Positions 4,407 to 13,295 of a DNA stretch of 32,000 bases are shown piece by piece. Origin of the DNA: Chlamydiales bacterium (lineage in GTDB: Bacteria; Chlamydiota; Chlamydiia; Chlamydiales; JAAKFR01); assembly GCA_041395025.1 (NCBI GenBank), contig JAWLBH010000001.1, positions 1,170,001 to 1,202,000 on the forward strand. The letters are read 5' to 3'. Both the position numbers and the translations under genes were made by a program. How positions within the stretch are numbered: position 1 is the first letter of the stretch; each line of letters begins with the position of its first letter. The notes below the pieces were generated by a model. That model saw nothing but the letters and a program-made list of their open reading frames with translations. It did not search any database and was not told the DNA's origin.

Positions 4407-4445
4407 AAGCAGGACTTAAACCTGCGACCTACGAGTTATGAGTCC
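4407..4445. repeat. att-like direct repeat: degenerate copy of the 3' half of the tRNA(CAU) gene
   Basis: aagcaggacttaaacctgcgacctacgagttatgagtcc matches 37 of 39 positions of 13228-13266. Same orientation as the intact tRNA. The acceptor-end 6 nt are degenerate. Confidence 0.8.
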
Positions 4446-4596
4446 CATTCGTAGTAATACTCTGAACAAAAGAGAGTTAACCAGAATCGATTTTCTCTCG
4501 CAAGAAGTTTTGGATTCTATTCCTATGAGTTCCAAAATTTCCTCAATCTTTCTAGTCAATTGGGGAAAGATGATCCCTATTAGGGTCTATGCCTCT

Positions 4597-4620
4597 ACCT
4601 TATTATATACCTTATTATAT
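4597..4620. repeat. Tandem 12-nt repeat (accttattatat) x2 in the leader of paralog A
   Basis: Two perfect units, 73 nt upstream of the ATG at 4694. The paralogous leader has three units (9688-9723). Confidence 0.85.
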
Positions 4621-4693
4621 AAAGAATTTATTTAAATAATGTGGGTTAATTAAAATCTGTTAAAATTTTTAAAAAAAACTAGGCGGGTGATAT

Positions 4694-6028
4694 ATGTTTC
4701 CTTTATCGACTCCTTCGACTTGGGAGTATTTTAGGTCTTTTTTTTATAGTAATACAACTGTAAGTCCCATTGACCTTGAAGGGAACCTAACGATAGGTAA
4801 GTATAAATGCCCCGATGACTGGGTGATTCAAAGAGCTCAAACAATTACTTGTTACAACGAGGATGTGCAAAAAGTTTTATCTGAAACATTGACATATGAG
4901 CCTGAAGAAATTAAGAAAAGAGGAGAAGTTTTAAAAAAACATGGTTTTAAATTGCTCTCTTCAAAACTTCTTTTTAATAACTCCTTAGAAGATCTGGAAA
5001 TAATTCCTTACTACAGCGTCTGTGAACATGAAGGACTAGATGGTTGGATCATTAAATCTGGAGCAAGGAGAATTTCAGAAGATTTAATACCACCGTTGCT
5101 TGCAAATGATCACAATGAATTCGCAATATCTACCCAGCATGATTCTCTATTACGCTTCGAGATGAGAGACAGGTTACGTCAAGCCGCCCAGCGACGCGGA
5201 ATCGATCTGGTTATGCCGGAAGAATATGCAATCCCTTATTTAACAATAGATTCAACAGGAACAGATGTCACAAAACAGTATTTTGTATTGAGTAAAAAAT
5301 TAGACGTTTTAAGTTCTGAAGAGACAGTTAAAGCTTTGAAAAATGAGGAACTTCAAAAGTGCTATGCCTCTAATGTAATCGCCCTTATTGAGGAAACTGG
5401 GTATACCGACATTAGCATTGATAATATTCGATTAACACAAAAAAATGAAATTACTATTTTAGATACTAAGCCTGTGGGTTTATTGACAAAGCGGGGGAAT
5501 GTGTACCCTAAAGGCGGCAGCTTAGAGAAGCATGTTCGCATCGGTTTGTTCAATCTTAAGAAATTTGCAGAATTCAACAATTTGGACATTGTTGCTGAAC
5601 AGGCTAGACAACATTATTATGCAGCTTTGAAATCTGTATCTATTACAAAAATTGCCCTTACAGCGCTTAGTTGTCTGATTCCTTTGGCGCTATTGATCTC
5701 GACAATCGTCTATCCCAATCTGTTGAATCAAGTTCTTACACAGCATCAGATACTAGCAGTACAAATGACTTTAGGATCATTAACTCCTTTAGTTCCAATT
5801 GTTTTATTAATTATTTCCGCGGTAAAATGTCGGTCTATTTATAATGAAGCTAAGGAATTAAAAGAAAAGGATTCAGGTTTTTTTACTAAAAATCGAGCCC
5901 TAAAAAATAGTAATTCGTTAGAATTCAAACATAGATTTGTTGAGCATCAGAAAGATATAATTTCTTTAAGCAGAAGATTTTTTAGACGTATAGAGGGTAT
6001 CCCTTTTCAATCCGTGCATAGCGAGTGA
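4694..6028 (+). CDS. Membrane-anchored protein with a protein-kinase-like catalytic motif set and a C-terminal bilobed hydrophobic domain (paralog A)
   Basis: 444-aa ORF preceded by ggcgggtga-N5-ATG. Motifs: GLDGWIIK (K121), RFEM (E156), GYTDISIDN (D239, N244) and ITILDT (D257). The D-x4-N and D-to-D +18 spacings equal those of the canonical kinase catalytic loop and DFG. Hydrophobic segments at aa ~319-339 and ~359-377 are separated by a short polar loop. Confidence 0.75.
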   Translation: MFPLSTPSTWEYFRSFFYSNTTVSPIDLEGNLTIGKYKCPDDWVIQRAQTITCYNEDVQKVLSETLTYEPEEIKKRGEVLKKHGFKLLSSKLLFNNSLEDLEIIPYYSVCEHEGLDGWIIKSGARRISEDLIPPLLANDHNEFAISTQHDSLLRFEMRDRLRQAAQRRGIDLVMPEEYAIPYLTIDSTGTDVTKQYFVLSKKLDVLSSEETVKALKNEELQKCYASNVIALIEETGYTDISIDNIRLTQKNEITILDTKPVGLLTKRGNVYPKGGSLEKHVRIGLFNLKKFAEFNNLDIVAEQARQHYYAALKSVSITKIALTALSCLIPLALLISTIVYPNLLNQVLTQHQILAVQMTLGSLTPLVPIVLLIISAVKCRSIYNEAKELKEKDSGFFTKNRALKNSNSLEFKHRFVEHQKDIISLSRRFFRRIEGIPFQSVHSE

Positions 6029-6029
6029 T

Positions 6030-6571
6030 TTCGTCTTCCCATAGGACACGATCACGTCCTCAACTCTCTTTGAGTTTCTTTAGGCTCAATGTGGGCTTTT
6101 CTTTGAGCCAGTTGAGAGGAGAGACAGCATAGCTGAGGAAGAGAGGAAAGGGATGAGATGTAGTGATTAGTTTAGTTGTTGCACTTGTCCGTTTGGATTC
6201 TTTGGAGGCTGGGGTTTCTGATAGGTACTGTCGCTCCTTACTGAGAAGAGCAGTATTTGATATGCACGACTAGGCGCCAAGGTGCGATTTCCAGTAAATG
6301 AGATGACGCTTTGTATCAGCAGCTGAGCGATGGTGGTCTAAAATACCATCTTGGATGTATCGATCGACGAGTTTGTCAAAGGTATGTTGATTTTTGTGAT
6401 GATCGAAGTTGAATCGACCATTTTTGATTTCCCTTTCTGTATCTTTGGCCCAGTCCTCAGCTTCTTGCTTGCGCTCAAATGTTTTGTAGACTGTAGGGTA
6501 GTCTTTTGTGAGTCACAGCTCGCCAAGGCGGTGATGCCGTTTTTGTTTTTACGTCTATAGAAAGATGTCAT
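6030..6571 (-). pseudogene. Tyrosine integrase relic (N-terminal ~180 codons only, frameshifted, with stops)
   Basis: The minus strand reads MTSFYRRKNKNG, then after a frameshift DYPTVYKTFERKQEAEDWAKDTEREIKNGRFNF...LVDRYIQD...HLIYWKSHLGA*...LSYAVSPLNWLKEKP...LKES*GRDRVLWEDE. It is cut off at the module boundary (6013-6029). Confidence 0.7.
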
Positions 6572-6896
6572 ATTCCAACCTTTTGGTTAAGAGTTTGGTT
6601 GGATGGCACCGGTTAAACTTTTCTTCACTGCACCATATTTGCGACTTCCTTTCGATGCGCTAGTAACAACAATGGTTCTCTGTATTATGATTCCTCTATG
6701 CTGAGATAGTATTACATTAAGTAAATGCTAAAGCTTCACACTCAAGTTTATAAGTCAATAAGCTCACGAGAATTTGTTGGTAATCAGCAGCTCTCTCATC
6801 ATACACCTCAAAATCAGTGAGATAATTGCATTTACCACCTAATTGTTAAGGCGTCGTATTCTAAATGGTCTTCCATGCATTATCAAGTTTTGAAGC

Positions 6897-11683: not shown

Positions 11684-11780
11684 AAATCTGATGGCAGAGA
11701 GCGGAGAGAAGCAGGCATTTTCTACTCTCAGCACACAATTTTACTATTCAACTGATTGAGCCTTAAAAATATCAAATTTC

Positions 11781-11809
11781 TTGAAATCGTCTAAAATTTA
11801 TGGTAGAAT
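11781..11809 (+). promoter_or_regulatory. Sigma-70-like promoter (TTGAAA, 17-nt spacer, TGgTAGAAT) upstream of the ABC-F pseudogene
   Basis: -35 TTGAAA at 11781-11786, 17-nt spacer, extended -10 TGG TAGAAT at 11801-11809. It lies ~90 nt upstream of the ATG at 11900. Confidence 0.4.
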
Positions 11810-11899
11810 GGCGGAAATTCTCTTTTGAGAAGCTTCTTTCAATGAGAATTTAAGTTTGCATCCAATCTGTTAACTAAAAATAACCCAAGGATCAAACTT

Positions 11900-12882
11900 A
11901 TGTCTCAGCTTCTCATACAAATATCTCATCTTTTTAAATCTTTCGGCGTTTTTCCTCTTTTTGAGGATATTTCCCTTTCGATTAATGAAGAAGAGTTCTT
12001 TGCTTTGATTGGGGAAAATGGCGTAGGGAAAACAACGCTTCTGCAGCTTTTGGCTGGGATAATGCAGCCGGATTCTGGAGATTACAGCAGATGCTTTCTG
12101 TGCGAGAATTCATAGAAGGCAGTCCCCTTACAGATCTTGAAAAAGAAATGGCCGTTTGTCTTGAAGATCCAAACCGTTTGGCAGAGTGGGCCAAGTTGCA
12201 CGAAAGGTACGAACACCTAGGTGGATATCGGCAAATTCCGAATCTCCCTATGTCCGATTTAAGTAGCGGCCAGCGCGTACGGTCAGCTTTGGCTAAAACA
12301 CTAATCGAAAATCCGGATCTTCTTCTTTTAGATGAGCCTACTAATCATCTTGACCGAGAGATGCTCGAGTGGCTAGAAACGACTTTAAAAACAGAGGAAA
12401 GGAGCCTGTGTGATTATCTCTCATGATCGCAAATTTTTAAATGTCATCTGCAACCATTTCATTGAAATCAAAAACGGAAAGCTTTCCAGCTATGGAGGAA
12501 ACTATGATTTCTATCTTGCAGAATAAGAAAGAATGCTTGAAAGGCAGATAAAGCCTTTGAAGCCCAGCAAGAAGAAAGAGTAAGCTTGAAGCAAAAAATC
12601 AAGGCGATCACTTTTTCAAAAAGTAAGCCACCCCCGGCGAAGGACCGTAATGTCATGGCTTAGGACAAAAAAGGAGAGAAGCATCAGAAATCGCTCCAGC
12701 ATAAGCTCGCTGCCATAAGGTCTTATTTGCCAATTTCTGCAAAACCATCAGTAAAGGAGACAGAATCCTCGTCACTGGTCCGAATGGATGCGGAAAGACT
12801 ACGCTTCTTAAAGTCATTGCTGGAATTATTCCTTTAGATGAAGGATGCATCCGGTCGACTTCCACCGCAAAAATCGCCTTGC
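11900..12882 (+). pseudogene. ABC-F family ATPase (Uup/YheS-like), shattered and 3'-truncated
   Basis: Walker [12 protein letters not shown] (ORF 11900..12115). LSSGQRVR ... [12 protein letters not shown] (ORF 12091..12426). Other frames give [38 protein letters not shown] and AFEAQQEERVSLKQKI, then the second Walker A TGPNGCGKTTLLKVIAGI. There are at least 4 frame changes or stops and internal deletions. The gene ends at the junction with an integrase relic. Confidence 0.8.
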
Positions 12883-13023
12883 TTCTTCTTGCTGCGCCCA
12901 GTCTTTAGCCTATTGGCGGGTCGGGAATGTTTTATAGGTAGGAGGAAAACCGTTGCTCTGTCGGATCATCACCCGATAGCTGTAGGTTCCGTTTTTCTTT
13001 TTACGTTTTTGAATGGTTGCCAT
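12883..13023 (-). pseudogene. Tyrosine integrase relic (first ~47 codons, in-frame TAG)
   Basis: The minus strand reads MATIQKRKKKNGTYSYRVMIRQSNGFPPTYKTFPTRQ*AKDWAQQEEA. This matches the N-terminal pattern of the other two integrase relics. It starts 199 nt from the 3' end of the intact tRNA. Confidence 0.65.
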
Positions 13024-13221
13024 ATCTGCGCATGCTCCGTTTTTTAGGGTTAACGTGAGCAGATGGCATTATCCCACTGATGAGGAGTGCTGTAAAGTAT
13101 TTTTGTGAAGGGCCGAGCTGTGCCATATGTGTGCCACGGGGTATTTTTCCGTAGTGAATTTTAATTTCAAAAGCTCAGTATTTCGCGCACTATTTCCTAA
13201 TTTACAAGAGGATATGAAAAA

Positions 13222-13295
13222 TGGGGCAAGCAGGACTTGAACCTGCGACCTACGGGTTATGAGTCCGCTGCTCTAACCGACTGAGCTATTGCCCC
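13222..13295 (-). tRNA. tRNA with CAU anticodon (elongator Met or lysidine-modified Ile2), no encoded CCA
   Basis: The reverse complement GGGGCAATAGCTCAGTCGGTTAGAGCAGCGGACTCATAACCCGTAGGTCGCAGGTTCAAGTCCTGCTTGCCCCA folds as a cloverleaf. It has a 7-bp acceptor stem, D stem GCTC/GAGC, T stem GCAGG/CCTGC, TTCAAGT loop and anticodon loop CTCATAA. G1-C72 argues against an initiator tRNA. Confidence 0.9.

Follow-up and report, generated by a model that had tools for sequence, protein, structure and literature searches.

A probable wreck of serially inserted integrative elements beside a tRNA-Met(CAU) gene of a Chlamydiales bacterium

Results

Displaced tRNA fragments and integrase relics

We analysed a stretch of 32,000 nucleotides (nt) from a Chlamydiales bacterium (assembly GCA_041395025.1, contig JAWLBH010000001.1, positions 1,170,001 to 1,202,000 of the forward strand; hereafter the window, in whose own numbering all coordinates are given), and within it the 8.9 kb that separate a gene for an APH-like kinase from a tRNA-Met(CAU) gene. 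This interval contains displaced copies of the 3' half of the tRNA gene, relics of tyrosine integrase genes, and two copies of a long module with an intact gene in each. The live tRNA gene lies on the reverse strand at 13222-13295 (13221-13296 by ARAGORN; Rfam RF00005, 73.6 bits), and has a G1-C72 pair, which identifies it as the non-initiator type.

The last 45 nt of the tRNA gene (13222-13266, reverse strand), which form the core of the attachment site (att) on its attL side, recur twice in the same orientation as the tRNA, as detected by blastn comparison of the window with itself (E = 8e-14 for fragment 2 and 1.5e-10 for fragment 1). Fragment 2 (9487-9536, reverse strand), at the junction between two elements, is identical to the tRNA at 43/45 positions over 9492-9536; both its T-loop and its T-stem are mutated, so that it is non-functional. 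Fragment 1 (4396-4445, reverse strand), the most decayed, marks the outer end of the array, where a match of 37/39 at 4407-4445 can be extended to 40/45 at 4401-4445. Decay rises with distance from the tRNA, from 45/45 through 43/45 to 40/45 (0, 2 and 5 changes), and one C-to-T change in the T-loop is common to both fragments and absent from the live tRNA. The fragments divide the array into two parts, referred to here as element A (4446-9491) and element B (9537-13221).

An earlier note, made from the sequence alone, had described the repeats at 9492-9536 and 4407-4445, and self-blastn, ARAGORN and Rfam found its coordinates and counts to be correct. The edge of identity that it placed in the anticodon-loop region was likewise borne out, as the match to the tRNA extends three bases past the anticodon loop and ends at 13266; the core therefore runs from the anticodon loop to the 3' end of the tRNA. 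Local alignment detected no further core copies in the window, and an Rfam scan of the region returned nothing besides the tRNA. An intact tRNA gene with displaced 3' fragments on the same strand and on its 3' side is the arrangement by which tandem arrays are recognised in Islander, in which 3919 islands include 125 arrays of at least two members and four of at least three (Hudson, Lau and Williams 2015, PMC4383910).

Fragment 1 is reproduced with 100% identity in a contig from an independent Logan assembly (L001), which supports the accuracy of the sequence at the outer junction. An exact-sequence look-up with the APH protein retrieved a single contig of 2.3 kb, from one other sample, and look-ups with the DUF1207 protein encoded on the 5' side of the tRNA and with the 444-amino acid (aa) protein described below returned no match. 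Promoter-like sites occurred at the mean of shuffled sequences and terminator-like sites at about twice the mean, neither being clearly above the shuffled controls. We also considered an open reading frame (ORF) of 65 or 69 aa that begins in the two fragments (4438-4635 and 9529-9738). It is probably spurious, its start ATG being the complement of the CAU anticodon in each fragment, and it has no homologs.

We identified three integrase relics, all on the strand of the tRNA. The relic of integrase B (12875-13023, reverse strand), next to the tRNA, retains codons 1-50 only, carries a GAG-to-TAG nonsense change, and ends in a sharp cut at 12875, as seen in six-frame translation. It is 96% identical to the N-terminal 50 residues of an intact 365-aa integrase at a related locus (L008), which itself passes PF00589, and the homology of L008 to the relic ends at about 12875-12881. 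The spacer between the 3' end of the tRNA and the start of integrase B (13024-13221, reverse strand), which represents the arm of element B on the integrase side, is included in the alignment to L008, as are the relic and the tRNA. The relic of integrase A (8548-9422, reverse strand) is near full length with at least three frameshifts, and is matched by the integrase of a second related locus, L004 (tblastn, E = 5e-23); its catalytic domain, rebuilt across the frameshifts, scores 88.3 bits on PF00589 (cutoff 27.1). The relic of integrase C (6012-6571, reverse strand) retains the first 187 residues or so, interrupted by one frameshift and two stops, and is cut exactly at the right edge of the first copy of the duplicated module (R1, see below). 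It is 47% identical to the intact integrase of a third related locus, L006 (tblastn, E = 6e-39), which passes PF00589. Membership of the tyrosine recombinase family is therefore direct for integrase A, and established through intact relatives for integrases B and C. No core-like sequence was found by local alignment beside relic C, in 6560-6920.

Integrases A and B are approximately 40% identical over the comparable N-terminal region, and the N-termini of all three integrases differ, indicating that three lineages are present. Core and relic are separated by 65-98 nt in A and by 198 nt in B; for the intact integrases of L004, L006 and L008 the gaps are 25, 164 and 199 nt, respectively. An integrase belonging to the array member itself, as Islander specifies, was found both for B, at the tRNA, and for A, at fragment 2, each in the form of a pseudogene. 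Both of the relics named in the earlier note are thus real, and the third, at 6012-6571, had been missed. With all three integrases inactivated the array should be immobile, and excision by its own enzymes is not expected.

Integrase B abuts an ABC-F ATPase pseudogene of the ribosomal-protection-like type (11900-12875, forward strand), which we identified from ABC_tran fragments and by tblastn to the ABC-F gene of L004. The pseudogene contains frameshifts and an internal deletion, and ends at approximately residue 406 of 534, at the same base at which integrase B is truncated after codon 50, indicating that one deletion fused both genes. DNA homology to the ABC-F region begins upstream of the pseudogene, at 11731. 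The intact L004 protein scores 427.7 bits on NCBIfam NF000355 (cutoff 380), and the window copy is truncated at its 3' end. Ribosomal-protection-like ABC-F genes are often mobile.

A duplicated module at the outer end of each element

The two tRNA fragments are each adjoined by a copy of the same module, and self-blastn and alignment of 4390-6013 with 9482-11179 gave 89% identity over 1714 columns. The copy in the outermost element, R1 (4446-6013, forward strand), consists of a 248-nt leader with two 12-nt units and the gene p444 (4694-6028, forward strand; R3E91_05400), which is intact and encodes 444 aa. The copy in element B, R2 (9537-11179, forward strand), consists of a 260-nt leader with three such units and the gene p466 (9797-11197, forward strand; R3E91_05425), also intact, encoding 466 aa. 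Both products have exact matches among NCBI proteins. The left edge of the module (4390-4396 and 9482-9487) coincides with the 3' end of the tRNA, and the right edge falls within the last few codons of the gene, at what is its natural end to judge from a homolog (P0003). The DNA to the right of R1 is unrelated to that to the right of R2. The earlier note had seen that the two displaced copies match each other beyond the core; this is real, and was much understated, as what is common is a module of 1.6-1.7 kb and not a short arm. The note had also raised the case that the 45-nt repeats belong to a larger duplication unrelated to the tRNA boundary. We found one half of this, in that the repeat is larger, but its edge is the 3' end of the tRNA.

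The 12-nt unit, CTTATTATATA(C/A), is present twice in the leader of p444 (4599-4621) and three times in that of p466 (9690-9724). It lies 150-190 nt from the core and has no perfect occurrence elsewhere in the window; it may serve as an arm site for an integrase or as part of a promoter.

The two genes contain blocks of 396 and 314 nt that are 100% identical, next to which residues 40-140 have diverged with a dS of 0.29 and a dN of 0.30. The indels between them, of which there are at least six, are all multiples of three, and overall dN/dS is approximately 1. We read this pattern as probable gene conversion between the copies combined with selection for an open frame, and the N-terminal part as being under little constraint, or else under diversifying pressure.

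Neither protein matched Pfam, NCBIfam or PDB sequences even at E = 10, and neither is a member of any kinase-family profile. A word-indexed search recovered two other relatives only, and an exhaustive profile search extended the 444-aa family to 239 clusters (66 at E <= 1e-30), none of which is annotated. In the AlphaFold model the pLDDT averages 64 and is mostly 70-94 over residues 20-310, and the top Foldseek matches in the PDB are all kinases (Bud32, Rio2, PI3K/PI4K and PknB), at modest scores (best E 1.3e-4, TM 0.2-0.45). A motif set with Lys, D-x4-N and Asp ('WIIKS', 'D-x4-N-IRLT' and 'IDTEP') is found in the consensus of 46 family members, yet is not invariant, and the C-terminal 130 residues form hydrophobic helices in a part of the model with low confidence. 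That the protein may be kinase-like and membrane-anchored, as the model suggests, is a lead and not a result.

None of the homologs of the 444-aa gene at seven other loci (L014-L020) adjoins a tRNA-Met core or an integrase, and at one of these, L019, they occur as plain tandem paralogs. The nearest outside homolog (35% identity; L014, 10001-18243) is located 5.4 kb from a toxin-antitoxin pair of the HI1419/HI1420 type, similar to the one in the window, and approximately 6.8 kb from a tRNA-Asn gene; no fragment or integrase was found at this locus. Four distant family members of 650-2314 aa (P0094, P0103, P0116 and P0120) have the family as a domain in the N-terminal region and all contain a starch-synthase domain; P0094 and P0120 additionally have alpha-amylase and CBM48 domains, and P0120 a ubiquitin hydrolase domain.

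The same tRNA gene in other uncultured chlamydiae

We scanned genomes for the DUF1207 protein encoded beside the tRNA, and obtained 12 loci, all from uncultured chlamydiae, with identities of 49-82%, which bears out the earlier note's choice of Chlamydiae as the related group. The pairing of tRNA-Met and DUF1207 is kept in 10/12 of these relatives. In the ten, the 5' side of the tRNA is syntenic with the window (DUF1207 and a 703-aa protein), and on the 3' side no two loci have anything in common apart from integrases and the ABC-F gene, which leaves no ancestral flank by which an empty site could be recognised. In the closest relative, L002, the 3' side contains a homolog of the N-terminal domain of the window's gene at 1360-2895, which at 35% identity is too distant to represent the same flank. 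The earlier note had allowed that relatives might carry the same 9 kb; no relative does, and synteny stops exactly at the tRNA. The homolog search returned no closer strains, with more than 82% identity in the flanking protein.

The same tRNA is occupied by integrases or repeat-bounded islands in four relatives: L004, L006, L008 and L013. In locus L004 (JAJFLX010000001.1) an intact 419-aa integrase adjoins the tRNA, and a 46-nt fragment of the 3' end lies at a distance of 6 kb. The four differences between this fragment and the live tRNA amount to two compensating pair changes in the T-stem (GCAGG/CCTGC as opposed to GCCAG/CTGGC), and the fragment is therefore a displaced working allele and not a decayed copy. 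The exchange of alleles provides direct evidence, from a sister locus, for a mechanism that replaces one tRNA half and displaces the other. The ABC-F gene of L004 stands just outside the island, between transposases of insertion sequences (IS) and the displaced fragment. Two transposase genes or gene fragments, IS66-like and IS4-like by reading of the sequence, occupy 110-1408 directly to the left of the intact ABC-F gene, which therefore sits in a plastic region there too.

Loci L006 (CAWHVD010000001.1) and L008 (JAFIGI010000044.1) have intact integrases beside the tRNA, and in L013 a perfect 47-nt repeat of tRNA-Met bounds 4.4 kb of DNA (3298-7663). This last segment has no integrase, and encodes an Ada methyltransferase, a NUDIX protein, a fragment of PEP mutase and a YhcG nuclease.

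The segment 12881-13295, comprising relic B, the spacer and the tRNA, is 89.4% identical in DNA to L008, compared with 68.7% for the adjoining host genes. Similarly, identity to L004 is 83.7% and 95.7% over the ABC-F pseudogene together with the preceding 170 nt, compared with 66-71% in the backbone. The earlier note had proposed comparing GC content with the flanks, and the island parts do deviate, the integrase, toxin-antitoxin and ABC-F parts ranging over 0.40-0.445 and the flanks over 0.36-0.38. A foreign origin of the array DNA, which is one of the Islander criteria, is supported by these sequence comparisons.

The best plasmid relative of the L008-type integrase is found on plasmid 9 of the amoeba-associated bacterium Legionella adelaidensis (L025, 235863-236930; 42% identity, 97% coverage), where it adjoins helix-turn-helix and toprim genes. 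No tRNA or tRNA-Met core lies beside it. Logan and NCBI contigs of four relatives (L021-L024) end 130-475 nt upstream of the DUF1207 gene, at tRNA-Met, which suggests that assemblies break at this tRNA from repeats or strain variation.

A history of serial insertion and decay

With good though not full confidence, the 8.9 kb that lie between the gene for the APH-like kinase and the tRNA are the wreck of small integrative elements that would have been inserted serially at this site. The steps of the proposed mechanism draw on the established behaviour of tRNA-targeting tyrosine integrases (PMC4383910), and the number and order of insertions and deletions are a reconstruction. Each element would have carried a tyrosine integrase and an attP that duplicated the 45-47 nt of the tRNA between the anticodon loop and the 3' end. 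On each insertion the tRNA would have been rebuilt with the 3' half brought by the element, and the previous half pushed outward as a dead fragment, so that the newest element stands beside the tRNA and the oldest farthest from it. At least three integrase lineages (B, A and C) would have taken part, with two displaced cores surviving.

Deletions would have followed, one fusing codon 50 of integrase B to codon 406 of the ABC-F gene, and another truncating integrase C at residue 187, where the far-end module ends; a core that once lay beside integrase C was presumably deleted too. The gene copies p444 and p466 have probably exchanged sequence by gene conversion, with their N-terminal regions diverging through in-frame changes only. 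On the simplest account, element B is a single element that has lost part of its interior. Element A probably combines two elements, and the core at their junction would have been deleted; alternatively, it may be a single mosaic with two integrases.

The gradient of decay agrees with such a history, in that the relic at the tRNA is 96% identical to an intact gene over its remaining codons and the inner relics are heavily damaged. In addition, each displaced core is accompanied on its outer side by an integrase relic, which has the orientation of the tRNA and stands at a natural distance. Serial insertion followed by erosion, as proposed in the earlier note, remains the best explanation, but the two elements counted there are too few for three integrase lineages. 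Its description of A and B as related holds for the far-end module of 1.6-1.7 kb that they have in common, but not for their integrases, which have only about 40% identity over the N-terminal region.

Several observations weigh against serial insertion. No core survives beside integrase C, a putative third element of the tRNA site, and the relatives offer no empty site or presence/absence polymorphism, the nearest of them being only 82% identical in the flanking protein. The N-termini of integrases A and B, which would bind the arm sites, are approximately 40% identical, yet the far-end arms are approximately 97% identical, which is unexpected if each arm binds its own integrase. The T-loop change common to both fragments and the near-identical DNA adjoining them fit the copying of a unit of core and module as well as they fit independent insertions with later gene conversion. 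Finally, the source is a metagenome-assembled genome, and some of the frameshifts could be errors (the DUF1207 gene is also frameshifted); the truncations and the GAG-to-TAG stop of relic B are not indel artefacts.

The copying of such a unit is the basis of a second explanation, in which only one or two insertions took place and the tRNA 3' fragment together with the 1.6 kb module was duplicated internally, by non-allelic recombination or a long gene-conversion tract. The size of the repeat (1.6-1.7 kb) with its 396-bp and 314-bp blocks at 100%, the derived T-loop change in both fragments with their near-identical arms, and the occurrence of the gene elsewhere away from tRNA cores, including the plain tandem paralogs of L019, all favour it. 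An internal copy must, however, have landed exactly 65-98 nt from the start of integrase A and in the right orientation, mimicking the junction of module, core and integrase that insertion produces. Moreover, R1 and R2 are followed on their right by unrelated DNA, and three integrase lineages still need several acquisitions. We therefore regard internal copying as unlikely, even though it is the most probable of the alternatives.

Less probable again, and in our view quite improbable, is that the units of core and single gene were integrase-less cassettes, comparable to cis-mobilisable elements, which resident integrases inserted in trans. Their compactness (a core, a conserved leader in which a 12-nt motif recurs, and a single intact gene, ending a few codons from the natural stop) would suit such cassettes, as would the fact that the units are intact while the rest decays. 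Yet neither unit has another core or att-like sequence at its right edge, no such unit occurs in any of the other loci examined (L014-L020), and the sharp right edge of R1 is more simply explained by the deletion that truncated integrase C.

We also considered an assembly artefact, in which variants of a single island locus from two strains were fused in tandem through their common core. The metagenomic origin of the genome, the contigs of four relatives that break right at the tRNA, and the frameshifts in the neighbouring DUF1207 gene are compatible with this. It is nevertheless very improbable: the middle core is decayed, with T-loop and T-stem changes, where a chimeric join is expected to have the live tRNA sequence, an independent assembly reproduces the outer junction exactly, and the source contig is 1.32 Mb long.

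Other genes in and around the array

A type II toxin-antitoxin pair in element A is intact, with the toxin gene first and 2 nt between the toxin stop and the antitoxin start. It consists of a RelE/ParE-family toxin (7211-7540, reverse strand; Pfam Gp49; TIGR02683, 93.4 bits, cutoff 62.85) and an HI1420-type antidote (6897-7208, reverse strand; Pfam dnstrm_HI1420; TIGR02684, 69.9 bits, cutoff 53.7), and both genes score above the cutoffs for HI1419/HI1420. Directly downstream of integrase A is an intact ORF of 253 aa (7794-8555, reverse strand) with no match in Pfam, NCBIfam or plasmids. A second intact ORF, of 130 aa (11204-11596, reverse strand), lies beside the right edge of R2 and matched nothing in Pfam or NCBIfam.

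On the 5' side of the tRNA, the DUF1207 gene (13488-14726, forward strand) has its first approximately 300 nt split over three frames by comparison with relatives of about 400 aa, and is annotated as 311 aa. The split may represent either real decay of the signal-peptide end or assembly errors. Just outside fragment 1, the interval 1360-4310 encodes the APH-like phosphotransferase, a GNAT fragment and an AAA_18/GrpB/GNAT fusion, at a GC content of 0.42-0.44. No synteny of this interval with any relative was found. It may be older foreign DNA, and the variable region may extend beyond fragment 1.

Discussion

The locus is an ordinary kind of genomic island: repeat-bounded tRNA islands in environmental chlamydiae and tandem tRNA arrays are both already known. 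An attP class centred on the anticodon was reportedly described by Williams in 2002. The array has what the Islander tandem-array rule calls for, namely a tRNA fragment and an integrase of its own for each member. Like other Islander arrays, it combines an intact tRNA gene with 3' fragments in direct orientation, an integrase for each member by the core, and a core that extends from the anticodon loop to the 3' end. Unlike them, all its integrases are pseudogenes or stumps, one member lacks a core, and the far-end module has been gene-converted between members.

Among environmental chlamydiae, a precedent is Pam100G, a 100-kb island at tRNA-Gly of Protochlamydia amoebophila UWE25, in which an internal third copy of the repeat was interpreted as indicating a complex history (Greub et al. 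2004, PMC548262). Both cases concern a tRNA-linked island with direct-repeat bounds in an environmental chlamydia. However, Pam100G is 100 kb in size with an F-like transfer operon and 17-bp repeats, whereas the elements described here are remnants of 3-6 kb with 45-nt cores, at another tRNA and without transfer genes. The islands of L004, L006 and L008 are nearer counterparts, as they have the same tRNA, a core of 46-47 nt, and the integrase family and orientation of the window. Their cargo is unrelated, comprising a C-N hydrolase, a DUF5906 primase-type NTPase and ORFs of unknown function, and none of them carries the 444-aa gene.

A parallel outside the phylum is provided by ICESt1 and ICESt3 of Streptococcus thermophilus, where integrative and conjugative elements and cis-mobilisable elements accrete at one att site, leaving arrays with internal att copies in which certain elements have no functional integrase. 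The phylum, target gene and element type all differ from those of the window.

The only unusual part of the locus is the intact duplicated gene of 444/466 aa. A bolder proposal is that the core, the leader with its repeated 12-nt motif and the gene for a kinase-fold protein with a hydrophobic C-terminal region together form an att-linked cassette for a host-interaction effector, kept open by selection as the remainder of the array decays, with its N-terminal region diversified by gene conversion and in-frame changes, and moved between chlamydial lineages by integrases at this tRNA. We put this forward as a speculation that would probably prove wrong. The predicted kinase-fold gene pair is nonetheless a lead to a new chlamydial protein family, with approximately 240 unannotated sequence clusters.

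More broadly, our data identify the 3' half of tRNA-Met(CAU) as a recurrent integration hot spot across uncultured environmental chlamydiae, used by at least three integrase lineages with the same core of 45-47 nt. Element DNA is common to lineages whose core genes are approximately 69% identical, which gives obligate intracellular bacteria a concrete path for horizontal transfer in addition to plasmids and Pam100G. If the intact L008- or L004-type enzymes work, this site and its integrases would also be a candidate natural attB/integrase pair for chlamydial genetics.

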